Assembly (NCBI GenBank): GCA_900128565.1
Contig: LT635912.1
Span: forward strand, 50,927-70,926
Reading direction: 5' to 3'
Source of the DNA: Stramenopiles sp. TOSAG23-6
Lineage: Eukaryota
Length of the DNA: 20,000 bases
In this document: one piece after another, positions 2,982 to 20,000 of the stretch
How the letters are laid out: the number at the start of each line of letters is the position of its first letter
Position numbering within the stretch: the first letter of the stretch is position 1
Translations under genes and position numbers: made by a program
The notes under the pieces: model-generated
What the model was told of the DNA's origin: nothing
The model's input: the letters and a program-made list of their open reading frames with translations, nothing else
Databases searched by the model: none

Positions 2982-3260
2982 GGCGAAAGTAATCCAAATT
3001 TACTCGCAATATAAATTTTCTTGGGGAGTTTAGGTTCTTTTTTGTCGAAGAGAGAAACTTTCAAATTTCAGCAAGTGAAAATTTCAAAATTCGCTGAAAA
3101 TCAAATTTGAAATTCAAATTCAAATTCAAATCGAAATATAATTGACAAGGTACAAAAAAAACATATAAATGCAAGTCCCTTACCGCAGAATTTATACATA
3201 CGTAGATATTAGATATATTTGAGATACTGCTTTATTTTTTGGTAATTAAAAAAAAACGAA

Positions 3261-3299
3261 TTCTATCTATTCTGGAATCTTCTATCTATTCTGGAATCT
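3261..3299 (+). repeat. 19-bp exact tandem duplication (TCTATCTATTCTGGAATCT x2) just upstream of the ATG at 3309
   Basis: Direct reading: 3262-3280 equals 3281-3299. Confidence 0.9.
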
Positions 3300-3308
3300 G
3301 GATGAAAA

Positions 3309-5183
3309 ATGGTTCATTTCTTGACTACATTGATATATCTTTTGTATTATCACTGCATACATGCAAATGATGACCAATGTAATGAAGCTATAAAAAAGCA
3401 AAAGATAAACGTGAATAGTTCAGAGTGGAAACTGTCACCAAATCGTGTTGTTATGGACAGTAACTTTAAATGGGGTCGAGTTGTAGTTCCCATCTGGACG
3501 TCAGTATTTTTAGGCACTAATGATTCTCTCCCACACTTGGATAACACTTTACAAATTTTATCCTCATTTGAGAGTGATGAACTTGCGCTTGTTACAGTCG
3601 TAGGTGGTGGCGCTTATCTCCGTATTCTTGAACATATGGAATTTAGTTCTATTCATTTCTTTGACGCAAACGTTAACGAGTTAAGTAAACTTCGACTTGT
3701 TCATGACGATATTATCAAATATGACTATGATACATGGATAGCAAATGGTGGAATGCAGTCTGTAGCTAATAAAATTTCCTCACTGCGGGAAAAATTTTAC
3801 CTGCCAGCCCCACTTCTAACAGCAGGTGTAACCCTGCATCCTGCAACTGACTTTGAGTGGCCGATTCCTGGTCAGAGTAGTTATTATGATCCATTAGGTC
3901 GACGAAATCCACTTTGGTCAATTTTCCCTCCTTTATCTTACCCAGAGTATGCATGGAAACCAACTCGAAAGGGTTATGAGAGAGTACGCAGACAATTGAA
4001 ATATCGTGTGGCAAATGAATTTTATTTATCAGTTCCTTGTGGCATCATTCCACCTAATATTCTTTCAATAGTTTATGTTGATGGAATCAAAATTCCAAAA
4101 TCAACAATACGTGCGGTTTCACGTTCGGGTGATGCTATTGGTTTATGGTCGATGGTTGAAGACCAAAAATTACTCGGTAGGGGAAATAATTCAGATTGGT
4201 CAGATTCCCATTTCTTTTGGGAGCTCGCAGTTCGTTGGAGGATTGAAAGTAGCACTACAGTAATAAATAATACTAGAATCGGTATGGATAATATTGTAAA
4301 TAATGTAATGCATATTTGGGCAATTGAAGATATAAATATGATGGGAACAATCTACGATTGGATGTTTACAAGTAGCATGGAAGCATCGTCATTTGCTTCG
4401 TCTACTGTGACGACTTCAACACCCAATAAAAAGGAGACAGACAAATCTTTCAATGAAATCATTGTTTTCCATATTCTACTTGGTAAAGCAACTACTAAAA
4501 CGAATTGTTCAAAACGCGAAGAATTATTTATGAATGCGTTGATTCGAGCTGTAAAAGAACCACATGTAAGAAATGTTCTAGTTACTGAGCATAACACCTC
4601 TTCAAAACAATTTGATATTTTAACTAATCCATGTGCATTAAATGCAGCTAATATCAGAAAACTTATCAACAAAACATTGTCATTAACACCAGACAACATC
4701 AAAACGAACATAATAGCTACTCGTTTTCTACCTGGTGGTGGTACTCATGATAGAAATGTATTATTTGATATTGCAGTAAATGAAGGAATTCCATCAAAAA
4801 ATGGTAATAAAAAAGAAACTTTCCTTGAAGATAATAATAAATCTATGAGACCAGCAACTATTCAACTTCAGATTGATGAAAACACGAAAAAAAGGCCTAT
4901 TATTTTTCCATATGATGGGTCTGTAAAAGTATTACAATCTCTCGCGGCTGCTGCGTGCATGGATATTCCTCTTACTGATAAATCATGTATGTTTTATTTT
5001 TTTTAATTTCGATTTTTTTTTCGTACGCAATTTTGTACCTAACAAAAATATTGAATGTAAAATATTTTTCAAAATACATGCATAGACCAAATTATGAATG
5101 AAATGAAAAGAATTATAAAAGAAGATAAAAAATCTTCTGCGAGGGCGATTCGCCCTGAAAAAGAGAGCAAGGTGATTCAATAA
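3309..5183 (+). CDS. Hypothetical secreted protein; exons 3309-4986 and 5080-5183
   Basis: 565-aa ORF with a hydrophobic N-terminus (MVHFLTTLIYLLYYHCIHA). It runs into a family-type intron; splicing gives ...DKS/CIDQIMNEMKRIIKE...KVIQ* with TAA at 5181-5183. Confidence 0.75.
4987..5079 (+). other. Non-canonical intron (93 nt, GTATGT...ATACAT), member of the repeated intron family
   Basis: TCA T|GTATGT...AAAATACAT|GC ATA, flanked by a CATG direct repeat. TACCTAAC at 5036-5043. In-frame TAA inside. Boundary inferred from alignment to the other copies because no protein homology was available. Confidence 0.7.
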
Positions 5184-5257
5184 GGATAATTACAAAAGTA
5201 TTACTTTAATAATGAATAAGTAAAAAGTTTGTTAGTTTTGGTTTGTCTTCCTTTTTT

Positions 5258-5983
5258 TTAGTTTATCGTCTTTTTTTTCTTAGAAGGTAGTTTACTTGCA
5301 ATTGTTGGCTGAACTCCCTCATCCAATCTTTTACGCTTCTTCTTTGTAGTTTGTTTTTTCATACTTGTCTTTTCATCATCTTCAATATCGACGTGTTTTG
5401 ATAAATCTTTTTCTGTCTGAGCATTATCTTCAAGAGATAGATTATTATTATCTTCAAGAGATAGATTATTCAATATCCATTTAAGTAACTCATCACCTTC
5501 AATCATACCAAATCTTTCTATTAGAGTATAATTCTTATCATTTATTGGACGAAATGTTTCATACCCGTGGCGAAGTTCTGCCATACGATTGATGGTTCTT
5601 TGATCCCATCCAGGACGAATATTTCGCGAAACTGCTTCAAGAGCTTTTTTGTTTGATTTAGACATGAGTGAAATGACAAGAATTTTATAGCCTTTCTTCT
5701 CAGCCAAAGCTGCCAAAACTCGAAAGTTCCTGAGTTTCATGTTTAAATTATCTAATATTACCAAAGGCTTCTTATCCATAAGGGCTAATGTGCACTTGTT
5801 TGCACACCAAGGTATTGCACAATCACAGTGAGTGCTAAGTTGCCATCTTCGGCCTTTATTTTGTGGTTGTAGCCACCATCGATCGTTGCTACACACAACA
5901 GCACCATGGTCTTTTTCAAGTTGATTGGAAAGATAACTTTTACCCATTCCTGTTGTGCCTCTCAAAATAATAAAATTCTGCAT
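5258..5983 (-). CDS. P-loop kinase-like protein (AAA_33 / NEDD4-binding protein 2-like) with basic C-terminal tail
   Basis: N-terminal IILRGTTGMGKS Walker A, VCSNDRW, LVILDNLN motif typical of N4BP2/PNK-like kinases, KKKRKR NLS-like tail. Confidence 0.75.
   Translation of the reverse strand: MQNFIILRGTTGMGKSYLSNQLEKDHGAVVCSNDRWWLQPQNKGRRWQLSTHCDCAIPWCANKCTLALMDKKPLVILDNLNMKLRNFRVLAALAEKKGYKILVISLMSKSNKKALEAVSRNIRPGWDQRTINRMAELRHGYETFRPINDKNYTLIERFGMIEGDELLKWILNNLSLEDNNNLSLEDNAQTEKDLSKHVDIEDDEKTSMKKQTTKKKRKRLDEGVQPTIASKLPSKKKKTIN
5423..5470. repeat. 24-bp exact in-frame tandem duplication (encodes NNLSLEDN x2)
   Basis: ATTATCTTCAAGAGATAGATTATT at 5423-5446 and 5447-5470. Confidence 0.9.
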
Positions 5984-6266
5984 GTTGTTGGGTATATTAC
6001 AATTTGAAACAGTTTAATTATCAAATCAAACTGAAGATATATCTTATTTTCTTCAAAGATACTGATTTGAGATTGATTAGGCCTAATTCCGAGTGACACG
6101 ATCGCCGAAGATCGACTGTTTCTGTTTTTTTTCGTTTTTCGTGTCGGTGTTTGTTTGCCGTTTGTTGGTTCGGGAAAATTTGAATTCAAATTTCAGCAAA
6201 AATTTCAACAACAAAACAACACAACACACAATAAAGAGTTTTGAATTTATCGTTTTAAAACTTACG

Positions 6267-8749
6267 ATGAGATTGATGAGACTTTTTATATATCATTTTG
6301 CATTCGTTCACACTGTTGCAGCAGAAGCATCTTTTGTGTTAAAAAGTTATGAATGCGTCGCTGGCTTCGATTGTATGTATCAAAACAGTTGTGCTAATGA
6401 TGAAGGAGTTTCTTGTCCCATTGGCCGGTTCTGTGGCAGACCCAGTTCTTTCCCCAATGGACTTTTTCAATGTGATGGTGACCATAATCAAAGTTGTCCA
6501 GGTAGTGAATTCCCAGATGATAGGTGGAGAACTTCAAAGTGTGCCACGGGTGCATACTGCCCGACGACAGTAACAAATCAAAAATGTGAAGCTGGATACT
6601 TTTGCCCAAGAGGGTCTGTCAAAAGAGTCAAGTGTTCAATAGGTTCAATATGTGGCGAAGCATCACACTTTCCAATTGGATTTTTGCTGTTTGGTTTCGC
6701 AATACTTTTGTTTATTTTTTATATTTTATGCCGTCGCTTTTGTCTCACGACAAAAATTGGTCATACGATTTCAAATGATGGTTGCGAAAACAAAAAAGAA
6801 CTTCCAGTTTCTAAGAAACTGAAAATGCCATTTCCTCTTCAATTCGAATTTGATAATATATGCTGGAACTTTCGAGATAAGCCTATTCTTCGTGGTGTAT
6901 CGGGTTCTGTCAAAGCAGGTGAAATGATTGCAATTATGGGTCCATCAGGAGCAGGTAAAAGTACACTAGTAAATTGTCTAATGTCACGGTATACCCCCAG
7001 TACCGGAACAGTAACAATAAATGGATACAAAGATATTGAATTCTCTAGTATATGTGGAATAACTGGTTATGTCCCACAAGATGATATAATGTTGGCTAAA
7101 TTAACAGTCAGGGAGAATTTAATGCATTCAGCAAATACTCGAATAAATTCTCAAGTAAAAGCAAATTACTCTTCAAAGGCTCGTGTTGATTCTGTACTCA
7201 CCAGTCTAGGTCTAGAACATGTACAACATTGTATAGTTGGAGATACCCGTAAGCGTGGACTAAGCGGTGGTGAAAAAAAACGTGTATCGATTGGTCTTGA
7301 ACTAGTGGCTAGTCCGTCTGCAATTTTTCTTGATGAGCCTACGACAGGGTTAGACTCATCCGCGGCTGAAGTTGTGATTAATCAATTAAAACTCTTTGCT
7401 AATGAAGGACACGCGGTTATAGTAATTTTACACCAACCACGTGCTAGTATATTCAAACAATTCGATAATATCCTTTGCTTAACATCTAGAGGCGAAACAT
7501 TTTACTTTGGAAGTCCTCTTAAAGTTCGTGACTTTTTAAACCAAATACAAAATCCATGTCCATCGGGGAAAAATCCAGCAGATCATTTAATTGACATTGC
7601 AACGAAAAAGGGTAAAGTATCAATGACATCTACCCCAACAAGTATTTCGGATAAATCTAAAACAATCTCAGAGAATACAGTAAAATTTGAAGATCCAAGA
7701 TTAAACATCAAAGGAAAATTAGCGAGTTGGGGAGCCCAGTTTTTATTCTACTGGAAACGTTCCTGTGTACAACAGCTACGAGATTCCATGGCACTGTATC
7801 TTTATTGTGGTCTTGTTTTCCTCATGGTTGCTTCTCTCTCAACTGGTTTTTCACCTTTTATCCAAGAAAATCTGGAGAGTGTTTACAAACCACCCCTCGG
7901 CAAATCATTGAGAGATTATTGTCCACCACACAATAAAGCATGTTCTGGCAGCATTAACGACGATGGATTAATACAAATGATGTTTTTCTACTGTATGTCA
8001 ATTGGATCAATTGGAATGCTTGCTGCATCTCGAACATTTTACAGAAGTGAAATGATAGTAATGAAAAGAGAATCAAATATTGGTCTATCCTCATCTGCTT
8101 GCATCATTGCAAAAGTTTTTGCTGATTTAAATGTAATTATATTACTATCATTGCTCGCATCAGGACTATGGCTTGCCATGGGTTATCCGGGTGGACCTGT
8201 TCGTTGGTTTGTTCTTACTTTTTCATTGTTGTTTACTTGCTACGGATGGGGATATTTTGTTTCACAAATTGTATCCGATGATATGATTATGACAGTATGT
8301 ATGGTGTACGTTTTCATACTAAATTTTGTACCTAAGATTCTTTTCATCCTAGTGTTTCTCTTTTGCTCACATTTTCTAAAAATAATTTTACTTTTCGAAT
8401 GATTCCAGTTGTCATATTCTAATTTTACATTTTTTCTGACGTATAATTTAATTACAGCACTGCTCTTGGCTTATCTGCTTTTAATGGTGTGAATCCAAAA
8501 CTTGTGGATGTTCCTTGGCCGTGGAGAACCATCTGGGGCATGGGATATAGTAGGTGGATTTCCGAAGCCATATTTTCCACCTTTACAATGCATGATAGAA
8601 ACAGTGGCTTACCTGTGCAATTTGCTGCATCGAGATTTGGCTATGATGTCTCCGACAATCAATTTATTCTTGATATTGTAGTTGTAGTGATACAAGGAAC
8701 CTTATTGAGAATATTTACAGGATTTTTGATTGTTAAAAAGAATACATAA
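6267..8749 (+). CDS. Second ABCG-family half transporter with Cys-rich ectodomain; exons 6267-8305 and 8458-8749
   Basis: ATG at 6267 gives a signal peptide (MRLMRLFIYHFAFVHTVAA). CPIGRFC/CEAGYFCP repeats, GPSGAGKST, LSGGEKKRV, FLDEPTTGLD, ILHQP. The TMD is completed by the spliced exon (MV/TALGLSAFNGVNP...YSRWISEA). Confidence 0.93.
8306..8457 (+). other. Canonical GT-AG intron (152 nt) carrying a degenerate copy of the family motif
   Basis: ATG GT|GTACGT...TTCTGAC...TTACAG|C ACT restores the frame. Contains AAATTTTGTACCTAAG at 8321-8336. Confidence 0.85.
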
Positions 8750-8869
8750 AAGATTTAGAAATAAAAACCATCAGAGATATTTTTTAAATGGCTTAATATT
8801 CAGAGCACTTCTTCAGAATGCAGGATTTTATTTGAGTAAAGTTGAACCGTTTATAAATGACCTAATCGT

Positions 8870-10106
8870 TCACGCATTTGCTGCTATTTTATCTGCTTCA
8901 CCTACTATTATCGTTGATTCTGTCGATATTGCAAAATCTTCGGCCATATCCAAACTAGAACTTCTTTCTTCTTCTTTTGCTGCTTGTACTGTTGTTTCTG
9001 CTTCTTTCAATTTCAAATTTGCAACTGAAAAAACAAATGTTTCCTCTTCTTTCTTCCTCTGACAACGAAATTTCCAACGGACCTGATTTACATTTGTTTT
9101 ATCTGGATCATTAGATGTCACTTCGTATCCTTCAAATGTTGGTATACCTCCTAACCATTTTTGCTTTTTTGTTTTTGGAAATCCACTTTGAATTACGCTA
9201 TTTCGTGCAATTTCAGATATATCAGTTGTACTAAGGCACCATATCTGTCGAGCTATGGAATATTCTTCTAGTAGAGGTGCATCTGATAAATGAAATATCA
9301 TAGGATCATCCGTGGATAAACTAACATTTAACCCTCGCTTGAAGAATTTATAAAAGGGTTGATCTTCGTATCTCATGAATAGAACATTGTTTGATACTGG
9401 TGAAACTGCGAGCCCAATATTATCTAGATAGTAAAGATATTGCATAACTATATCATTTGCTAATCCAATTCCGTGATTAATTCCATTAGCCAATAAATAA
9501 GTAGTACAAAGATGATGTTTGGAACCACTTTCACCTGCATGTGGACGCAATGAAAAAGTATTCATTCCTTTAGAACGCCTTAATGAATTCAATCGGCTAA
9601 TATTTGCATAAAGGTAATATAATTGATAAGAATATGGAGGATTTTGTTCCGATGTCCAATCTTTTGGAGTTGTAACCTTTCCATCAATTGTTGCAAGAGG
9701 GAGATCAAGTAAGCTTTCATCATCGACAGAGTCAAATCCTGAAACATCTTTTAGAAATTCTGAAAGCTCCGGATATTTTTTTGGTTTCTCAGTTGCATCA
9801 AAAAGAGGTTGAAATATATTATATATAACTTCTTGATATGATGTTACTTTTTTCAATTTGTGAAATATGCGGTAAATGTATTGTGAAAAAATATTTTTAC
9901 TCGAAATATTTTGTTAGGTACAAATTTGGTATAGAAAAAAATTAAATTTAAATTTTGAAAACATATATTCTTGGAATTTGAATAAGCCATCGATTGTGTG
10001 GCTGCTGGACTAGCTTATTATTGAGAGCCCATTTTGCAAGTTTATCCCATGCATCAATGTTATCACCATAAATGGATAAACGATACTCTGCCCACGTCCA
10101 TTGATG
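8870..10106 (-). CDS. AMPD: AMP deaminase, C-terminal half only (upper boundary approximate); exons ~10106-9967 and 9875-8870
   Basis: AEYRLSIYG, WDKLAKW, WLIQIPRIY, GFDSVDDES, NPPYSY, LRPHAGESG, INHGI, SPVSNN and the SLSTDDP signature. No N-terminal half upstream on this strand. Confidence 0.92.
9876..9966 (-). other. Non-canonical intron (91 nt, ATATGT...ATACAT; can be slid to AT-AC)
   Basis: CCA AGA AT|ATATGTTTTC...CACAATACAT|T TAC CGC restores the AMPD motif QIPRIYRIF. TACCTAAC at 9920-9913. No usable in-frame AG nearby. Confidence 0.85.
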
Positions 10107-12565
10107 CAGACATCCGGCGATATTGCTGCAATTGTTTTTCAAATTGATTACTTTGTGTGTGCGTATCATTCAAAGAGTGTGACATATTTATATCAAAATT
10201 ATTTTTCATATATTGCGTCATTTCTTGTATTCCGCCAAGAGAACCACTACGCCCACGTCTTACAGGAGGCGATTTGACAAATTTTGACCCAGATGAAGAT
10301 GCACGAGCTCGTTCAGGCCAAAGTGAGTGCAAATCAGGGTCTGACGGAGTTCTGCTCATGTTAAAACTATTTCTTTGCTGACGAACATTTCTACTATTAT
10401 CTGGTGTTTGCCTCAAATAACCTCTTATTTGTGTAGGTGTTGTTGGTGAACCCAAAAAAGTTGAATTAGGATGTCGTGGGGGTGTTGACCCCAGAGGGGT
10501 TGGCAAATTTGATCCTAGTATCATTATAGGCGATTTTCTTGAGATATTAGTGTTAGGGGACGCATGTCCTATTTGTTGAAATTGCGGCGGCGTATTTATG
10601 GAACTGTTCAAACTTGTTGGCATGCTATTATCTGATGATGTGCTTAGTCTATGTACCCTGTCTGCAGTCATAGGAATACTATTATCTGATGACAAGCTTA
10701 GTCTATGCCTTTCAACGACTTGTCCGACAGTTAACGGTGCATTTGAATGTAATCTTTCTAATGAACTTGCAACACTGTATTGAATAGGACTTGATGATGA
10801 TGCAACCTGCATATTAGGATTCGATCTATTGCTTCCAGGTGATAAAGGGTGACAATTCCGAGGTATAGATAAAGGTAATGCAACAGACATTGGGGAACCA
10901 GCATCATTTTTTACATTGGTATATTGATTATGAGAACCAATACGTGATTGCTGTTGGGGTGACCAATTCTGTGCACTTTGAGATGGATAGGTTCTTTGAT
11001 GTTGAATCATATGAGGCATCATTGGCTGTCGTGGGGAGTAATGTGGACCTTCACTCATTGGAGAAGATATTGAAGGATGTTCCATCGACCGATCATTCTT
11101 ATACATGACTTTCATTTGTCCCATATTTTGACGTCGTGCAGAGTGTTCCATACCAGTAGATGAAGACAATGCACCTTGAGGTCCAGAATATTGTATATAC
11201 TGCTGACGAGAATTCGAATAAATATTATTTGGATTGGGTTGAAATTCAGGTTCAACATATTTTTGTGGTTCAATAGCAATATTATTCTGTTGGCCTCTTT
11301 GCTGTTGATAGTATCTATTCTGTACCATCATAGCAAATCCTGGTCCTAAATGGTCTGGAAGTGAATGTGGTCGGAAATGATCATGTATTTCGGAAAAATA
11401 TTATTTTTAGTAAAAATTTGTTAGGTACAAAATTTGGTACAAAAAACAAATTCGAAATTCAATTTTGAAAACGTACATTTGGTTGACTTGCTCGGTATAA
11501 CTCTGGAGGAGATCTATAAGGAGAGTCTAATCGCAAAGGGTAGCGATACATGAGATTATGATTCCCACTATGTATTACACTCTTAGTCTGTTGTTGTATA
11601 TCTTGGGTATAATGAGTATCATGATAGTGTCTTGCTTGGTTTCGTACTCTTGGGATATTTGAACTCTGTTTTTCTACCTCTTGATTAGGGTTAGGGTTAC
11701 GTTTCTTTCTCACGTCTTGGCCATCAGAAGCATCTTTCCCTTCCGGTCGATCAGCATAATTATTAATAATACAATCAGTGACATTTGGTTGTCCAAGAAT
11801 TGAACCTGAGAGATCAAATCCACAGTCTTTTGCATACATTACGCTAGCTTTTAATTCACCGAACGGTGTTCCAATGGGAGAAAAAAAATATTTAGAAGTT
11901 TCCCGATTTGAGTTAAAGCTCAATGGCAGAGAACCATCATTGCTCACTGCATTTGCGCCAAATTCATAATTTATATGTGTTGTTGACAAATTGGACCGTT
12001 TCGTATTTCGCATCAGACCATATGCAGGTAGAACTCTAACAAAAGCAAATACCGATCGAAGAAATATTGCAATTCGCTTATAAACCTGTCTTAGTTGAGA
12101 GGTCATATCTCCATACTTTTTTAAACTTAAGTCTGCACCACCAGATGGATCAAAGTGTAAACTCCAACGCTCAAGTAATATACGTGACGAAGTTGTGTTA
12201 TCATTGTGATTCTTGGCTTCTACAGAGGGTATTCCGACACCAGAAAAATGACCAGCACAAGCTCCACCCCCGCCCATCCAAAATATGTCACACTCTTTGA
12301 ATGGTAAATATGGATCATGCTTCCATGGTTCTAGCTCTTTGCGCACAAAATCTATGTTTTCTATGTGCAAATTAAATGGCGGCCTCGTCTTCTTCTTTTG
12401 AGTCCTTTGAGGAGACTGAAAACGAACACGAGATTGTAACACAATCTCCGATATTTTGAACAAAGATTCAAGTACAATACGTTCACACTTTCCTCGCTCA
12501 TTCTTTTCCAAAGCATTACCTTGTGCAGATTGCCGGCGTTTAATTGCACTAGAAGGTGCAGACAT
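10063..12565 (-). CDS. ATG13: Autophagy-related protein 13 (HORMA domain plus long disordered S/P/Q-rich tail); exons 12565-11477 and 11382-10063; extreme C-terminus probably chimeric
   Basis: HORMA motifs EIVLQSRV, FNL, LLERWSLHF, VYKRIAIFLRSVFAFVRVLPAY, SPIGTPFGELKASVMY, followed by a low-complexity region. Confidence 0.85.
11383..11476 (-). other. Non-canonical intron (94 nt, GTACGT...ATACAT)
   Basis: CCA AAT|GTACGTTTTC...GAAATACAT|GAT CAT joins the two ATG13 ORFs in frame. TACCTAAC at 11427-11420, 37 nt before the 3' end. Confidence 0.78.
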
Positions 12566-12818
12566 TATGAAAGTCCCACGTGGGTGGGAATGATTCCCGC
12601 TGTCCCCAAGAAATGCTTTTATAATATTTTATCAGTGAAATACTAATGTTGTCCGATTTCGAGATTGATTGTGTTTTGTCGAGAAGAACTTTCTTTTCAC
12701 CAAAATGAAACTGTTTTTTCCTGTTCAACTGACGCAACATTTTTTCATAATTAATTAAACGTATATTTGTGACAGTGATACATTTTACAACAATAGTTGA
12801 AATTAAAAGCGACGATAG

Positions 12819-13523
12819 ATGGATTTGGCAGAAGAATATGAACAATGTGGTCTTGGTGCATATCAGCCATATTACGACAAACTTTTACTTGAACACCCTA
12901 AAACTGTTGGCTCATCTGTGTCGTCGAAAGAACGTCGAGGTAAAACATATACTGGCTCTAAATTTGTGTATGGTGAAATACGATTTGACTCTTTTTCTCT
13001 GGCAATACATAAAGTTCGAATATATGGTGGATTGAAAACCCCCGGAGGAATTTTCTACGACCTTGGGTCGGGTATAGGAAAGCCATGTTTTGCTGCAGCT
13101 CTACTGCACGACTTTGACAAGGTCTATGGGATTGAAATGCTACCAGGTTTGAATAAAGTAGCTAATGACATACTCGTCAAATGGAACGAATTAGTCGGCG
13201 ATAAATATGCTTGGAAAGAAACCCGTGCTGTGAAAGAATTCAAGAAAAAAAAGAACAATATTGGTATAGAATTTATATGTTCGGATCTTTGCACGTTTGA
13301 TTGGACAGACGCGACTGTTGTGTTTGCTAATTCAACTTGTTTTACTGAAGAACTTATGGCAAAAATCGCAGAAAAGGCTCTATCCTTAAAGAAAGGCACG
13401 TTTTTCATTACATTTACAAAAGCATTGCCAAATGTGGAAGGTTTCTGGTACATTCATGAAGCTAAGTCATATACCATGTCATGGGGACCTGCGACGGTGT
13501 ATATACAGGAAAAGATTAGATGA
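12819..13523 (+). CDS. DOT1-domain (histone H3K79-type) SAM-dependent methyltransferase
   Basis: YGEI, FYDLGSGIGK (motif I), YGIEML, DATVVFANSTCF and MSWG motifs of small protist DOT1-like proteins. Confidence 0.8.
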   Translation: MDLAEEYEQCGLGAYQPYYDKLLLEHPKTVGSSVSSKERRGKTYTGSKFVYGEIRFDSFSLAIHKVRIYGGLKTPGGIFYDLGSGIGKPCFAAALLHDFDKVYGIEMLPGLNKVANDILVKWNELVGDKYAWKETRAVKEFKKKKNNIGIEFICSDLCTFDWTDATVVFANSTCFTEELMAKIAEKALSLKKGTFFITFTKALPNVEGFWYIHEAKSYTMSWGPATVYIQEKIR

Positions 13524-13556
13524 ATGAACCAAATAATTACAGTCGTCGTGAACAGC

Positions 13557-13608
13557 CCCAATAGACCCTAGGACCTAAAACCTAAAACCAATAACCTAAA
13601 CCCAATAG
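13557..13608 (+). repeat. Degenerate ~7-nt-period CCTAAA-like array, telomere-like, intergenic
   Basis: CCCAATAGACCCTAGGACCTAAAACCTAAAACCAATAACCTAAACCCAATAG; CCCAATAG occurs at both ends. Confidence 0.55.
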
Positions 13609-13732
13609 TCACCGGTTATACATTTAGAATAAAGTTATTAGATTTGAATAGCAATAATTCATAGTATTCTTTTGTTACATTGAATATATATATATTTCAA
13701 CAAAGCTTTTTTATATTATATATACTTAATAC

Positions 13733-15070
13733 TTAAGTAGAAGCGTCGAGAAAATTGTCAACATTTTTGATTTGCATTTCTGCAAGAAGTTTCAATGCTT
13801 CTTCGTCTTCAACGTCCAATTCACGCATTTCACTTAATAATTCTTGAGCAACTTCATAAAACCCAACTTCATTATCATCTAACATTTCACTTTCAGATAC
13901 ATCGGAATGATTTTCAATTTCTTTCTGACATACTGCCAAAGCTTCCGCATATGTTTCTACTCCGAATCTAGATTTCATTCCTTGCAATACACTACCCAGT
14001 ACCATATTCGTATTCAAGTCATTCAATATTTCGTGTTCTTTAGAATGCAAAATTTTGCTAGCTTCTGTTCCAGTTTGTGTTGAGTGTTGTAATTGTTGTG
14101 CGCTACAGATTTCATCTCTACTCTTCAAAGATCGCGCCCCACTATGCCATAAGCCAGGTCTCCGATTTAAACGTTCAGTTAATTCATCCAATGCACTCAC
14201 AGTAACTACGCACTGTTCCCGCAATAATAAGTCATACACGTTACAATTTTCAGAACTGATCACAGTCAAATACGGTATATTTCGGGAAGCCCAGTAAAAG
14301 TTTTCATCCACTTCATCAGTACCGCGAACAAATAGAATTCCTTTTTTACCGACCCAGCCATGAGCTTCGATGGCTTTAACCAAAGCTGACGTTTTTCGTG
14401 TTGGCATTACAGCTTCATCAACAACAGCAATATTACCTTCACGCCACTTGGCAGCTAAAGCCGTTTTAATTCCCAATTGAACTATCTTTTTATTCAATTT
14501 TTGTGACCAAACACGGGTTTGACGAGGACCGTGAGCCTTACCACCACCCCGCCAAATTGGTGAACGAATTGAACCGTGCCGGGCGCGTCCTGATCCTTTT
14601 TGTTTCCATGGTTTCCTCCCACCACCACTGACTTCCGCGCGATTTTTTACTTTAACTAGGCCGCCACTTTTGACTTGACGCCTGTTTGCACGCTGCCAGC
14701 AGACTACACGATGAACTAAATCACGGCGGATGGGTACTCCAAACACACTATTTTCTAGTGTTACTTCCGCGACTGGATCTGAATGTAGGGCACCAACTTC
14801 CATCTTCGCAACAGGCATGTGTTTCACGGTTGTGTCGGATCTTCCTAATGATGCGATGTCTAGCTGTCCAACATTGTCTGCAAAGAGGCTATCCACACCA
14901 TTAAACGTTTCTTCTGGTACTACAACGTTAGATGGAAGGTCAAGGTTGATAGAAGTCCTATTAAGGCTGGATTCAGTGGCAACACAGAAAAGACGCACTG
15001 TATTAACACGCAATCGCATAACTCTGGAACATGATGCACCAAGTAACTGGGAGATGGCGGGGGAAAACAT
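13733..15070 (-). CDS. MRPL4: Mitochondrial (bacterial-type) large ribosomal subunit protein uL4 with presequence and acidic C-terminal extension
   Basis: VFGVPIRRDLVHRVVCWQ, RAEVSGGGRKPWKQKGSGRARHGSIRSPIWRGGGKAHGP, SRNIP, NVYDLL; Arg-rich N-terminal transit-like peptide. Confidence 0.92.
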   Translation of the reverse strand: MFSPAISQLLGASCSRVMRLRVNTVRLFCVATESSLNRTSINLDLPSNVVVPEETFNGVDSLFADNVGQLDIASLGRSDTTVKHMPVAKMEVGALHSDPVAEVTLENSVFGVPIRRDLVHRVVCWQRANRRQVKSGGLVKVKNRAEVSGGGRKPWKQKGSGRARHGSIRSPIWRGGGKAHGPRQTRVWSQKLNKKIVQLGIKTALAAKWREGNIAVVDEAVMPTRKTSALVKAIEAHGWVGKKGILFVRGTDEVDENFYWASRNIPYLTVISSENCNVYDLLLREQCVVTVSALDELTERLNRRPGLWHSGARSLKSRDEICSAQQLQHSTQTGTEASKILHSKEHEILNDLNTNMVLGSVLQGMKSRFGVETYAEALAVCQKEIENHSDVSESEMLDDNEVGFYEVAQELLSEMRELDVEDEEALKLLAEMQIKNVDNFLDAST

Positions 15071-15294
15071 TGAACTTCAGTTGCAGTATATACAAGCTAC
15101 AAAAACAGTAGTACACGTACTAATAAGGTAAGGCAAAGTGTAAACTGGATGCAGTGTGCAAAGACACGTGCAAAAAAGACCGACACGTGGCAAAACGACG
15201 ACGACGCAGACATGGCCAAAACTAAGGCCTTACTTACTAAAAGTAAAAGTTATTATATTACTTTTACCGCTTTCTCTACGATAGTACCGTTTCG

Positions 15295-18200
15295 ATGGGA
15301 ATGAGTGGTGATTCTGCTAATGTAGAACAGCAACTTAAGGAAGTGAAACTTGCATTTGCGGACTATGACTGGAATACAGTCGGAAAGATCTGCGCAAGAC
15401 GTGAAATCGCACACTTGTCTATTTTTAAGTCATATGCTGCGCGAGTTGCCAGTATCCGTAGAGATTATACACGCGCAGTTGCACTTTGTGATGATATCGC
15501 ACGATCTTCTCCTACATGTACCGATCCAGAAACACTCTCAAATTTGCGACATATCTATAGCTTGAATGGCTTAGATCGGCAAGTCGTTGACCTGTATGAA
15601 AAAGCCTTAACAGCAGCAGCACCATCCTTTTCTTCCCAGAAAATCGATATTGATGCTGAACCTACTCTTGTCGAACGACTTTCTCGAGCTCTTTTTGATG
15701 CATACGGCAATGTTGGTTCGAGCAAAAAACAGCAGGCCATTGCGCTTAAATTATACAAAATGACTCAAAAGAAACAATACATGGTCTGGGCGACGACTTG
15801 TCTATTGCTTCAATGTCCATCTGAAAAATCTAATAGAGGTAGTGAACGTGAAGCTACTCTTAATCTTGCAATATCCATGCTACGCCGCGTACTTGATATC
15901 GATAATGTCTCATCAAGAGGTAATGATGGTGAATCTGTTCGCTTGTATGTTGAAACTTTACTAGAGTTAAAAAAGTTCCAAGACGTTTTGACAGTTTTAG
16001 ACTCTACAATTGTTCAATCAAATTTTAAACAAAAACAAGATGATACAAAAGATGAAGAGTCATCAATTACAAAAGATGACGCAGATGATGGTGCGTTTGC
16101 TGGTGCTTTTACATACCGCGAAAGTCTCCTAATTCGTGCTGACGTTTTATCGAAAATGGAAAGATGGAACGAAGCTGCTGATTCCAATCGCGAATTTCTT
16201 CTTGAAGTTGATGTGAATGACTGGGTTTCGTGCCGTTCCTTTATATTTAATACAAATTCTCTCTATAGTAATGCTTCTACGGAACTAGAGAAATCCACAA
16301 TTGATTCAAATTCTGATAAATTTGTTGAGTTATTACAAGAAAAAGCAAAATCTTTTCCATCTGTCCCGAGAGCTCCTTGTACGTTTTCATCATTTCAATG
16401 TCGATGTTTTTTCATACGAAATTTTGTACCTAACGATTTTTTTTATTTCTAAAAAAAAATATTTTTCACAATACTTTTCTTCTAGAAATTGCGTTAGCAC
16501 ATAGTCGCATTGTAAATCGTACCAAAAACAGCTCATGTGACATGTCTACTTCTATAGAAATGTTATGTCAAGCCTCTGGTGATTTTCTTGATTTAATCAA
16601 AAATTATTGGAAAATATTTGGTAAGAAATTATGCTGTTTTCTGGATGTTCAGCATTTTTTAAATATTTTAACCATTCCAACAGAATGTTCTCGGAATGAA
16701 ATGAAATGTTCTACAGAATTAGCACGAAACATCGATCAAGCTATTGGTCGTATAAAAACTGTTTTGTGTACAATGATAAATTCTTCACAATCAAACCGGA
16801 CAAACCCTAAACCTAATTCATCTTTAAAAGTTTCAAAAGAAAGGCTGAATAATTTACATTCTTACATTACTGCACAGCAAATCTCTCGATTTATTGGTTT
16901 ACATCGGTTAAATGATAACAATCAATTACTTGAAATTGCACGTGATCTCATTATTGAATGGAAAATAACATTAGATTTGAATTCTAAAAAATCTTCCATG
17001 GGAGATACTACTCTTAATAATATATCGAATGAAATTAAGAAATTAGATTTTCAGAAAAAGAAAGAAAACGAAAATCCTAATGATGACCAAAGAGAAGTTC
17101 AACACGGTGATGATTTGCTACTCCTTGCGGCGCATATTTTCATAGAATTATCTATCCGTTACACCTTCGCTGCTCAACAACTGTCAACATCTATCGAAGA
17201 AATGTCGAATAATAAAAGAAAAGGCTGGTCATTTTTAGTCGATGCAATTGTTGCAGCAGAATTGGGACTGAAACATTCCGCATTCAACTTTCAAATGAAG
17301 TTAGTAGTAATAAGAGTGTACAATGTACTGGGTGCATTTTCTTCCGCGATGGCTCGGTTTAAGGAACTCGATATTAAACACATTCAAATTGAAACTTTAT
17401 CATATGTTGCACTTGATAATTCTATAGCCACTGGATTTCATGACAATGCTATCCAGATGTGTGAAAGTATTGAATCATTTCATGGACATAGTTCACGTTG
17501 TATTCCAAAATATACTAGTACTGCATATAAATATGGAAATGTGTGTCAAGTGCGAGAATTCTTCAAGTTAAAAGAGAAATTAAGACGATCTCATCAATTA
17601 GTATCATCTCAAATTGATCTTTTTCATTTAAATATGATGAAACTTCCCAAATATTCTCACCAATGGCTTAAAGAACAATTTATGATGGGACATTTAAAAG
17701 ACATTCCCATGACAGAGCTCGAAAAACTTTTGGAAACAGAAGATAGAAATATTGCAAGTTCCTGGGATGCACCTATTCACGCATTAGCTGGAATTAAAAA
17801 TGCCGAAAACCTTAAAGGGAGTGCTACTCCTCAAATACAAAAGATTGAAGCTGTTGACTTGCGTATACGTTGTTTATATCCTATACTTTTAATGTTAAGT
17901 AGTTCGTTTACCGAAGAAAAACGTCTGAAAGAAAAACTTGTTGAATTTAAACGTTTGGTCAAAACATTACATGAAATTCGGATAATTTCTCCAAATAAAA
18001 CTCTTCATGAAAAGATTATGCAAGGTACATTTCAAATGAAATGTAATTGCTATGAGATAATTGCTGATGCCTTTGATATTGCATTAGATATTTCAAGTTT
18101 AATGGGAACAGAGCTGTCGTCTGATGTGAAGTCAGAATTGCGTAATTCTTTACAACCTAAATTAATATCTATGAGCAAACGTCTCACAAAACTGGCTTCA

Positions 18201-18854
18201 TTTTCAGCGTATTCATTATGTGAAGAAATAGATAGTAATCATGTGGATGAATTATGTACCGTAGATATGTCTACAATTGATTGGGGATTTCGTGCATGGG
18301 ATATTATAAAACATGGGGATTCCGTTCCTCTCTCTGCCTCGAATGATGGAAAAGGTTTACGAGGTTGTTGGATTTTTTTAATGCATTTGTCTACTTGGTT
18401 GACCAAATTGATACCTGAGTGGTACGGCGCATTACAAATTACTGGTTCCAAAGTAAAAGGAAAGAATAAAAGTAAAGGTAAAAATAAGAAAGGTAAAAAA
18501 AACAAAACAAAAAAATCTTCAAAAGGTAATGATGCTCCCATCTCTGCTCTAAAAAACATCACCGCTGTTCTTGATGATATACTTATGGGAATGGCAAAAC
18601 AAGCGAAAGTTGCTCAAGGTAAACTTGCAAAAGGTTTGTCTCCAAAACTTCAACTAGAAGGGTTAGGGTTAGGATCCACACCTATTTCTGTACTAGATAT
18701 AGCTTTGCAAGAATCTTCAGCAATGCTTGAAAAACTTCATCAAGTTAGAATGGAAACTTTGCGGAAAATTTCGTGTGATCATAAGGAAGCACTTTCGAAA
18801 GTGTTGAAAGCTGCGTTAGATGGCAGTGCGTTATTACGAAAAATTCGCAGATGA
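15295..18854 (+). CDS. NAA25: N-terminal acetyltransferase B auxiliary subunit (NAA25/MDM20); exons 15295-16378 and 16477-18854
   Basis: TPR-like N-terminus, KQQAIALKLYK...YMVWA, RAP/FLLEI, FGKKLCCFLDV, SAFNFQMKLVVIRVYNVLG, FKELDIKHIQIETLSY, AYKYGNVCQVREFFKLKEKLRRS. Confidence 0.88.
16379..16476 (+). other. Non-canonical intron (98 nt, GTACGT...ATACTT)
   Basis: GCT CCT T|GTACGT...CACAATACTT|TT CTT gives RAPFLLEIAL, matching the NAA25 RGPxLAxLEL-type helix. CTT direct repeat. The first downstream AG (16484-16485) creates TAA; a later AG (16497) is in frame but would delete the helix. Confidence 0.72.
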
Positions 18855-19019
18855 TTTTAATCATTTTATATAAAAAAAATATTTGTATTTTTTGTATTTT
18901 TAACGCATCCGTTTCGTTTATATCCAATTTAAATTGGTTACCGTTAAAATTTGTATCCTCTTTCATCACCTTGCAAGTTGTAACTAAAGTAGAAAAATAT
19001 TTTACAGTACTCTTAATCA

Positions 19020-19926
19020 ATGAGTTGCTGTCATGGTAGTCTCAGCACAATGATGTGGGATATGACAAAGAAAAAGATTTTGGATGAAAATGGTTCTGCA
19101 AAATTTTTCAAGTTGTCGTTATCCGAAGCTGCTGAAAGCTCAACCGCAGACGCACGAAAGGCGTGTGCAATGATATCTAAAGCACGTGAGCTAAGAGCTA
19201 AATACAGGAATAAATCAGGTGATCTGGGCTTTTCCTGTGATGAAAACTCACCGAGAAGGGGAGTGTTGAGTGTTGATAGCGGGGCGTATGAGCTTGTAAA
19301 TATCGCAGATCAAGTAATAAAAGATGACCTTCCAACAATGGGTGACTTTGTCAGTGACTATCGGGAACTTATATCAATCAGAAACAGTGGTGCGTGCAAA
19401 ACTCTTTGCCATAAGCGATTAACACTTTTAGAAACGACATTTGAAATACACAAATCTATGAACGGTGATCGAGAAATGGCACTTGAACGAGCTTCAAAAA
19501 CAGATTTTTATGGGATACATAAGGTGGACACACATGTTCATGCTGCAGCTGCAGTTGCAGCTCCAGATATTTTGTCTTTTATTAAAAAAAAAGTCAAAAA
19601 TTGTGGAGATGATGTGGTGGACGGCGAAAGGACACTAAAAGAAGTATATGATTCAGTTGGGGTTCCTCTCGACGAGCTTACTGTTGATGCAATTGACATA
19701 GCTGCTGATGCAACACTTTTCAATCGTTTTGATCACTTCAATGCCAAATGTATGTTTTCATCAGGAATTTCAAATTTTAATGATTTTCATTTCTTAGTTA
19801 TTACGTACAGTATACCTAACAAATTTCAAATATTAAATATTATTTCACAAAAAATACAATCCTTGTGGAAATGCATCACTTCGACGTTTATTTCTCAAAA
19901 CTGATAATGACGTGAATGGTACTTAT
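19020..19926 (+). CDS. AMPD: AMP deaminase, N-terminal half; exons 19020-19749 and 19856-19926, continuing past the window
   Basis: ELRAKY, KTLCHKRLTLLE, DFYGIHKVDTHVH (Zn-binding His pair), TLKEVY, FNRFDHFNAK/YNPCG...LRRLFLKTDN. Confidence 0.92.
19750..19855 (+). other. Non-canonical intron (106 nt, GTATGT...AAAAAT)
   Basis: GCC AAA T|GTATGT...CACAAAAAAT|AC AAT CCT restores the conserved FNAKYNPCG. TACCTAAC at 19813-19820. No AG between that motif and the next donor at 19927. Confidence 0.9.
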
Positions 19927-20000
19927 GTATGTTGTATTTTTTTTTAATTTCGAATTTATTTTTCATACGAAATTTTGTACCTAACGATTTTTTTTTGAAA
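19927..20000 (+). other. Family-type intron, truncated by the window end
   Basis: ACT TAT|GTATGT donor; TACCTAAC at 19978-19985; 37 nt identical to the NAA25 intron. Confidence 0.85.

Follow-up and report, generated by a model that had tools for sequence, protein, structure and literature searches.

A single AMP deaminase (AMPD) gene was found as two complementary pieces on opposite strands of the 20,000-nucleotide stretch of DNA that we analysed (the window). The gene is broken mid-exon at one sharp junction, 10094|10095, where minus-strand coding sequence of a second conserved gene, ATG13, abuts it in a different frame (10090..10100). We ranked a misassembly or amplification chimera above a recent or polymorphic inversion, and we consider it about an even chance that the join at 10094|10095 is an amplification or assembly chimera. 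A joining error in the assembled DNA is likelier than a working split gene.

Two complementary pieces of AMP deaminase

The N-terminal piece lies on the plus strand (19020-19926) and comprises two exons, which together cover positions 114-288 of the Pfam AMP_deaminase profile PF19326. Exon 1 (19020..19749) is an open reading frame that opens with the ATG at 19020 and closes with ...RFDHFNAK and one further base, the first of the following codon; it contains the metal-site motif KVDTHVH, and the plus-strand ORF at 19017-19904 matches profile positions 114-265 (E 2.3e-35). Exon 2 (19856..19926), reading (Y)NPCGNASLRRLFLKTDNDVNGTY, was placed by its Pfam match and by BLASTP: the translation of 19855-19926 (YNPCGNASLRRLFLKTDNDVNGTY) matches profile positions 265-288 (E 1.5e-06), and the exon corresponds to residues 576-599 of a full-length relative, P0052. 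The N piece aligns with residues 174-328 of the solved AMPD 2a3l_A, with KVDTHVH over kvdthvh. The plus-strand gene ends where it does because the window end falls inside an intron.

The C-terminal piece (minus strand, 10094-8870) likewise has two exons and covers profile positions 308-624. Its upstream exon is present only as a 3' part (9967..10094; WAEYRLSIYGDNIDAWDKLAKWALNNKLVQQPHNRWLIQIPRI), from which the first 18 codons are absent; the minus-strand translation of 9963-10094 (WAEYRLSIYG...PRIY) matches profile positions 308-349 (E 1.5e-13), and the exon corresponds to residues 620-660 of P0052 by BLASTP. The last exon (8870..9875) carries the PHAGE and SLSTDDP motifs and closes with a TGA at 8872-8870, and the sequence at 8870-9913 matches profile positions 348-624 (E 5.5e-111). 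This exon aligns with residues 385-653 of human AMPD2 (26xc_A) and 416-688 of 2a3l_A, and RPHAGE and SLSTDDP fall over rphcge and slstddp of the human enzyme. The four exon pieces scored 372.3, 122.5, 50.5, and 27.3 bits against PF19326, all above the curated cut-off of 27 bits. The metal-site and catalytic motifs of AMPDs are an HxH near the start of the barrel, the H of PHxGE, and the D of STDDP; in the window, the metal-site and zinc-site motifs are divided between the two pieces.

The initial annotation had proposed that the two halves belong to one gene and lie 15 to 20 residues apart without overlapping, and both proposals hold: the profile ranges (114-288 and 308-624) are complementary, and on P0052 the end of the N piece falls at residue 599 and the start of the C piece at 618-620, leaving a gap of 18 residues and zero overlap. 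Profile positions 289-306, 18 core residues, are absent from the window, and the catalytic domain is not encoded by one continuous coding sequence there, the pieces lying about 9 kb apart. When the N piece was searched against longer proteins for the native AMPD join, the best matches reached only 32-43% identity. All the AMPD exons are open, and metagenome relatives differ from the window at four AMPD codons, three of them synonymously, which is not the look of a long-broken gene. The further claim that both halves look intact is correct for the exons but not for the intron at 9876-9966: its donor is ATATGT in the window, whereas metagenome X3 has GTATGT there (variant 9966 T>C), and GT is present in seven of the eight copies of its intron family.

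The junction, ATG13, and the metagenome comparison

An inversion-type break had been placed at about 10100, and the Pfam match start together with the codon-usage change-point now fix it sharply at 10094|10095. The PF19326 match begins exactly at W10094, the optimum for the change from the ATG13 frame to the AMPD frame lies at 10093-10096, and codon usage penalizes an AMPD frame stretched to 10162 by 7.7 bits. BLASTP stretched its AMPD match upstream of 10094 to residues 7-14 of the 73-residue frame over the junction, but we rejected this extension because the matching part of P0079 is intron-derived junk before the usual exon start EV.SDLEESKYQ, the Pfam match reaches no further than its start at W10094, and codon usage disfavours it. 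No intron signal or splice site was detected at the junction. Breakpoint repeats, which the initial annotation had suggested looking for, did not turn up: no copy or remnant of the intron family was found at 10095-10400 (nhmmer, all filters off, E up to 10), and no other match of at least 11 nt was significant at the junction. A protein search with the 73-residue frame gave 69% as its best match and none from the same species. Exact-pattern and protein scans of metagenome, genome, and viral contigs recovered neither this locus nor a related one; the metagenome contig scan produced 84 pattern hits, none of which was confirmed.

The gene beyond the junction is ATG13, as had been annotated, and its minus-strand frame runs into the AMPD exon. 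ATG13 exon 1 (11477..12565; HORMA part) matches the Pfam ATG13 family (E 8.9e-28) and is 48% identical to residues 1-176 of P0114. Exon 2 (10063..11382; an ORF encoding the disordered C-terminal part) is collinear with P0114 up to RSGSLGGIQEM, past which P0114 has 124 more residues and the window has 40 up to the junction. Past the junction, this frame continues out of register for 10 codons of the AMPD exon (VGRVSFIHLW) up to a stop codon at 10065-10063; the C-terminal tail of about 80 residues in P0114, including its terminal IDEDLAFFDEVD motif, is lacking. By comparison with this sole relative, ATG13 looks clipped. An exhaustive search with the ATG13 tail returned one distant relative only, and no same-species or close protein showed the native tail.

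We also found an inverted repeat of 26 nt (23 nt exact), with one arm at 10164..10189 (plus), 70-95 nt from the junction, and the other at 12281..12306 (minus) inside ATG13 exon 1 (PFKECDIF); the match was recovered in none of 200 shuffles. At 12291-12299, 2.1 kb from the junction, the window sequence is the reverse complement of 10167-10189, with five listed differences from X3 and one from X4. In X3 record 3 the changes form a tight cluster at 12291-12298, within the second arm. The HORMA strand reads PFKECDIF in the window versus PLSIDIF as read from the X3 differences. The sequence at 12291-12299 resembles a patch copied by template switching from the opposite strand.

Between the two AMPD pieces (segment 12819..18854) lie, by Pfam matches, genes for a DOT1-like methyltransferase (12819-13523, plus), a mitochondrial-type ribosomal protein L4 (13733-15076, minus), and a NatB/MDM20 subunit (about 15290-16378 and 16477-18854, plus), and over 12718-16433 the window is collinear with an X3 contig. 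Several seawater samples contain the organism in abundance, at about 99% identity. Both flanks of the junction are covered in the independent seawater metagenomes X3 and X4, and among the listed contig pieces none spans 10094|10095. Coverage is missing over 10005-10232 in the RNA contigs of X6 and X7 and over 10005-10149 in X4, and these are uninformative on the junction. The X3 bins over the junction have a normal depth of 10.9, which is compatible with natural DNA spanning it. Depth arithmetic for X3 contig ends had one solution at the junction (one contig ending near 10092 and another beginning near 10063), on which we did not rely because unlisted contigs clearly feed the neighbouring bins as well. 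Depth over the C piece is 6.7-7.8 in X3 and 3.0-4.4 in X4, and elsewhere 3.7-9.1 and 1.8-6.9, respectively; it is therefore ordinary and points to one natural copy rather than two. A further X3 contig (8285-9522) links the C piece to the ABC transporter gene next to it.

Relative to the metagenomes, none of the 12 listed indels (of 17) shifts a reading frame, and 18 of 30 coding differences are synonymous. Given this good base-level quality, the contig is not generally poor. The best matches to the window DNA came from a single sample, in two small runs of 2015 with contigs of 16-18 million letters, and the study also contains another organism; such data would fit a partial genome obtained from very little DNA.

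Origin of the join

The anatomy of the break, the fit of the two pieces, and the clipping of both genes are visible in the sequence; an artificial join and amplified source DNA are what we infer. The organism would then have one ordinary AMPD gene of at least four exons, and one false join at 10094|10095 would interrupt it in the assembly. The plus-strand gene from 19020 would, in the true genome, pass through the intron at the window end and 18 further codons and then run into 10094-8870 in the opposite orientation, the left 10 kb of the window being the reverse complement of the true sequence past its right end. As the initial annotation had anticipated, turning the segment from 10095 to about 20085 would rebuild a minus-strand AMPD. 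The false join would connect, in inverted orientation, points about 10 kb apart, which is the usual form of a template-switch chimera in whole-genome amplification, and the assembler could have favoured it because the true path enters a thousands-copy repeat within 54 nt.

A chimera has the merit that one junction accounts for everything, the pieces fitting with an 18-residue gap and no overlap. That junction breaks two conserved genes at once, both in coding sequence, and all the exons are open, the donor base at 9966 aside. In geometry, it joins in inverted orientation two points that would be about 10 kb apart in the rebuilt order; in one study, 406 of 475 amplification chimeras were inverted joins, mostly of points less than 10 kb apart (PMC1855051). 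Besides, the best-matching runs are small, as would be consistent with a partial genome from little DNA, the patch at 12291-12299 is a second opposite-strand anomaly only 2.1 kb away, and the depth of the C piece is ordinary in X3 and X4. Against a chimera, amplification of the source DNA is presumed, the base quality of the window is good, and the normal X3 depth over the junction is compatible with natural spanning DNA. If the private donor change at 9966 (AT versus GT) disabled splicing, it would have arisen more easily in an already-dead AMPD, which would favour a real inversion, and the patch alters a conserved HORMA strand, which fits relaxed constraint on a truly clipped ATG13.

A serious contender, although less probable than a chimera, is that the lineage of the cell or strain sequenced here underwent a real and recent inversion, or a complex rearrangement by template switching, of about 10 kb. 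Its breakpoints would lie in AMPD exon 3 and in the C-terminal coding region of ATG13 just past the window, leaving AMPD dead and ATG13 clipped. The break anatomy would be the same as that of a chimera, and private, possibly damaging changes occur in exactly the two broken genes (9966 G>A at the donor and the 9-nt HORMA patch) in an otherwise accurate window, no comparable change having been seen in DOT1, L4, or NatB in the metagenome comparison. Some organisms can do without AMPD; yeast, for instance, survives deletion of amd1. However, an inversion needs two breakpoints, the second predicted at about 20085, and it would have broken two conserved genes at once despite the abundance of the organism, while four AMPD exons stayed open and conserved, the donor base aside. 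For any given 20 kb, a misjoin in a genome assembled from little DNA is also likelier a priori than a private inversion that breaks genes, and the donor change may be harmless, since the intron family already splices without AG. It is possible, though less likely than not, that the junction is real and that the window comes from a wild marine protist cell with a very young template-switch rearrangement of about 10 kb, in which AMPD was killed, ATG13 was clipped, and the first marks of decay (the 9966 donor and the 9-nt patch) are already visible.

A true inverted partial duplication, with a complete plus-strand AMPD continuing past 20000 and the minus-strand 8870-10094 being an extra truncated copy fused to ATG13, seems improbable. 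It would agree with the plus-strand gene ending solely at the window end, but in X3 and X4 the C piece does not show twice the depth of the single-copy flanks, the X3 contig running from the C piece to the ABC transporter gene represents an ordinary single genomic context, and an extra copy starting 18 codons past the window end would be a coincidence unless the contig ends there. We regard a naturally split gene, rebuilt through trans-spliced transcripts or programmed DNA joining, as very improbable. Trans-spliced split genes are known in some protists, such as those for Hsp90 and dynein heavy chain in Giardia, and the N piece does run into a normal intron 5' end that carries a branch-point motif. 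The 3' piece of such a gene should follow the 3' part of an intron at an exon boundary, and the C piece instead starts mid-exon without 18 conserved codons, downstream of sequence that scores as ATG13 coding and in which the nhmmer search described above found no part of the intron family upstream of 10094. Trans-splicing and programmed rearrangement, both raised by the initial annotation, are thus unsupported, because the break has no intron signal, repeat copy, or splice site; besides, with the standard genetic code and long ORFs, the window shows no hint of genome processing of the ciliate kind.

Should the join be artefactual, neither this contig nor, probably, others of the same assembly would be a sound basis for claims on gene order or gene loss, and annotation would wrongly yield AMPD as two fragments and ATG13 as a short gene. 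A real join would be a natural AMPD knock-out within a few mutations of its origin, which is of modest interest.

A single intron family and comparison with known systems

The introns are a by-product of this analysis and its more valuable result, as they bear on intron spread and on 3' splice-site choice. All eight window introns are copies of one repeat family of about 95 nt with thousands of copies, and their host, apparently a marine organism of high abundance, would thus have introns, at least these eight, that derive from one short element. The intron at 19750..19855 (plus; nhmmer 19752-19859) reads GTATGT...TACCTAAC...AAAAAAT, and its cut is fixed by the conserved KYNP of relatives. The copy truncated by the window end (19927..20000, plus, 5' part; nhmmer 19933-20000) lies in the window bin with the top metagenome depth, 19816 versus 4-11 in repeat-free X3 bins. 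The other two that concern us are on the minus strand, at 9876..9966 in AMPD (nhmmer 9967-9876) and at 11383..11476 in ATG13 (nhmmer). No GT-AG model of the intron at 19750-19855 keeps the frame, and those of the introns at 9876-9966 and 11383-11476 would remove residues that relatives conserve; GT-AG splicing is thus ruled out by the adjoining conserved protein sequence for at least three window introns. We detected no conserved RNA structure in the family, including a hairpin between its ends, and no Rfam match over the whole window, and a literature search with the branch motif as a word returned primers only.

In being near-identical copies of one short, many-copy element, the window introns resemble the introner elements described from Micromonas, Aureococcus, and Amoebophrya, and they share non-GT-AG splice ends with those of Amoebophrya (PMC7789003). 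The Amoebophrya introners are characterized by inverted repeats of 8-20 nt and no fixed end motif (PMC7789003), whereas the window element has a yeast-like 5' end (GTAYGT) and the branch motif, with no conserved hairpin between its ends.

Both AMPD pieces match their family strongly and in order when set against the solved enzymes (Arabidopsis 2A3L and human AMPD2 8HU6/8HUB), although the window AMPD, unlike these, is non-contiguous. The window shares with the trans-spliced genes of Giardia two separate loci and a first piece ending at an intron 5' end, but its second piece is without an intron 3' part and the first 18 codons. As in gene-disrupting inversions, including replication-based template-switch events, two genes are broken in coding sequence and the intervening segment is intact and collinear with natural contigs; such inversions have reciprocal breakpoints, whereas the window shows one, with the second predicted past its end. 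The inverted chimeras of multiple displacement amplification (MDA) were described in reads (PMC1855051), whereas the window is an assembled contig for which amplification of the source is presumed. Like those chimeras, the window shows a single inverted join of nearby points in unique sequence (Lasken and Stockwell 2007, PMC1855051), and it also has a short opposite-strand patch nearby.

Two complementary AMP deaminase pieces in a gene-dense window

The window is eukaryotic, gene-dense sequence in the standard code, with a G+C content of 30-46% in 1-kb windows. Based on Pfam matches, two ABCG-type transporter genes and two unnamed ORFs occupy positions 1-8749. An ORF at 3306-5003 (+, 566 codons) had no Pfam match at E values up to 0.01 and is directly followed by an intron-family copy, and an ORF at 5261-6013 (-), with a weak AAA_33 kinase-like match, contains a perfect 24-nt tandem duplication (two copies, 5423-5470). 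These are followed by the C part of an AMP deaminase (AMPD) gene (8870-10094, -) and by ATG13 (10063-12565, -), to the right of which lie genes for a DOT1-like methyltransferase (+), a mitochondrial-type ribosomal protein L4 (-), and a NatB/MDM20 subunit (+), and finally the AMPD N part (19020-19926, +) with an intron cut by the window end.

The initial annotation described the AMPD halves as lying on opposite strands, complementary and nonoverlapping, and this is borne out by their positions in the Pfam AMP_deaminase model (114-265 and 265-288 on the + strand; 308-349 and 348-624 on the - strand) and on P0052, one full-length relative. In P0052 coordinates, residue 599 is the last one covered by the N part and residues 618 to 620 mark the start of the C part; the two do not overlap, and 18 residues are absent between them. 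The N part aligns to residues 174-328 of a solved structure of Arabidopsis AMPD (2a3l_A), and the last AMPD exon aligns to residues 416-688 of 2a3l_A and 385-653 of human AMPD2. The HxH motif (KVDTHVH) is located in the N part and RPHAGE and SLSTDDP in the C part; the zinc ligands are presumably divided between the pieces, neither of which would be an enzyme alone.

The window in independent DNA and RNA

Among the 13 public runs listed for 10001-20000, sampled words of this region were recovered at 98% in two small runs from 2015 that share one sample and may be the source, at 54-84% in three seawater metagenomes (2024), and at 6-19% in four RNA runs. Scans of further sequence collections did not find the same or a related locus. 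We compared 8000-20000 with contigs of two seawater metagenomes (X3 and X4) and two metatranscriptomes (X6 and X7). Natural contigs about 99% alike matched long stretches of the window collinearly (e.g., 12718-16433, 11450-12677, and 8285-9522). Eighteen of the 30 coding differences listed against the metagenome contigs were synonymous, as were three of the AMPD codons listed, with one nonsynonymous, and none of the 12 insertions/deletions listed, of 17 in all, shifted a coding frame. The window is accurate at the base level. An in-frame stretch of 18 nt at 14041, in the C-terminal extension of L4, is present in the window and X3 and absent from X4, a natural polymorphism in length.

The eight introns identified in the window (seven by nhmmer) are all members of a single family, 92-111 nt in length, with copies at 641-736 (-), 4986-5079 (+), about 8290-8400 (+; the eighth, seen at about 8311-8344), about 9876-9967 (-), about 11383-11477 (-), 16378-16476 (+), about 19750-19859 (+), and 19927-20000 (+; cut by the window end). 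The family has a 5' T|GTAYGTTTT, internal AATTTCGA...CRTACGAAATTTTG-TACCTAAC, and a 3' AATATTTTTCACAATAC(AT), with copies ending in ...TTTTCACAATAC; TACCTAAC was seen 7 times versus 0.34 expected. In X3, depth reached about 3100-19800 in the four bins richest in intron copies, 30 and 85 in two bins with more diverged copies, and 4-11 in bins without copies, and the RNA runs gave the same contrast between intron-rich and intron-free bins. This contrast suggests that the family has thousands of copies, and it looks introner-like. As judged from the sequence, three introns would not be GT-AG spliceable without a frameshift or loss of conserved residues: no GT-AG reading of 19750-19855 keeps the frame, and those of 9876-9966 and 11383-11476 remove residues that relatives conserve. 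In these three introns, the cuts that keep the frame end in AT or TA, not AG. Cutting out T[GA]TAYG...ATAC[AT] (i.e., GT...AT) preserves the frame in four of the six complete copies, and for the remaining two the cut has to be shifted by a few bases; we infer the exact cuts on this basis. No conserved hairpin joining the ends of the family was found, by which it differs from the noncanonical introner elements of Amoebophrya (PMC7789003).

The break at 10094|10095 and changes private to the window

The ATG13 frame (exon 2, from 11382, -) enters the AMPD exon without a stop and continues out of frame for 10 of its codons, up to a stop at 10065-10063. The Pfam AMPD match begins at W10094, and a two-frame codon-usage change-point model, with 12 other coding stretches from the window as its training set, had its optimum at 10093-10096, with extension of the AMPD frame to 10162 costing 7.7 bits. 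BLASTP alignments offered AMPD similarity upstream of 10094, which was rejected because the matched residues of the database fragments are intron-derived. No intron-family copy or remnant was detected in 10095-10400 by the family profile with all filters off. The break is thus a sharp point in the interior of an exon and coincides with neither an intron nor a repeat, leaving no basis for the trans-splicing or programmed rearrangement considered in the initial annotation. Among the X3, X4, X6, and X7 pieces listed for 8000-20000, which are mostly intron repeats, none spans 10094|10095, and none of the listed joints and loose ends falls there; a further 6664 pieces, 443 loose ends, and 50 joints lay outside this listing.

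ATG13, too, seems to be clipped. Exon 2, searched exhaustively, gave a sole relative, the EukProt protein P0114, which is collinear with exon 1 (48% identity) and with exon 2 up to the island RSGSLGGIQEM. P0114 continues past this island for 124 residues, the last of which are IDEDLAFFDEVDTERLFD, and the window for 40 unrelated residues up to the junction; nothing elsewhere in the window corresponds to the P0114 tail. This comparison, with a single relative and in a disordered region, suggests the truncation. The disordered part also carries two 35-nt direct repeats (10619-10707; 54 nt apart, 86% alike) encoding a repeated peptide (..HRLSLSSDNSIPMT.. / ..HRLSTSSDNSMPTS..).

Besides the junction, a changed base at 9966 and a cluster at 12291-12298 are private to the window. 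Position 9966 opens the intron that separates the two - strand AMPD exons, where the window reads ATATGT versus GTATGT in X3; the remaining seven copies in the window have a GTATGT-type 5' end, like X3. The A may disable the donor site, as a mutation confined to the source. The cluster, in ATG13 exon 1, comprises three substitutions and three deleted bases relative to the metagenome contigs, and converts PLSIDIF (deduced from the X3 differences) to PFKECDIF at what we take to be a conserved HORMA strand. It falls inside one arm (12281-12306) of a 26-nt inverted repeat within ATG13 (23 positions exact; matched in 0 of 200 shuffles), the only inverted repeat of such length in the window outside the introns. 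The other arm (10164-10189), at a distance of 70-95 nt from the junction, has none of the differences listed against the metagenomes; hence, the arm at 12281-12306 looks like a patch copied from it on the opposite strand.

Origin of the inverted arrangement

We give an even chance to an amplification or assembly artifact, namely, one false inverted join at 10094|10095, which would explain all observations. A genuine private rearrangement, either an inversion or a complex template-switch event, is possible but less probable: the donor-base change at 9966 and the patched HORMA strand would be expected from relaxed constraint on two dead genes, and amplification of the source DNA is itself only presumed, although this reading calls for another, unseen breakpoint and has an organism abundant in the sea lose two conserved genes at once. 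A true inverted partial duplication of AMPD is improbable, being disfavored by the depth of the C part, which is ordinary in the metagenomes and not doubled. That the AMPD gene is naturally split into these two pieces we consider scarcely credible.

If the join is false, the true path from 10094 would within 54 nt enter the intron copy that the window end cuts. This copy lies in the bin of highest metagenome depth (19816 versus 4-11), and such an early entry into the intron repeat would be a reason why an assembler might take a chimeric link, and the contig may stop there for the same reason. In one study of amplification chimeras (PMC1855051), inverted joins made up 406 of the 475 chimeras and mostly linked points less than 10 kb apart; the inverted join, the commonest kind there, is the same kind as that proposed at 10094|10095.
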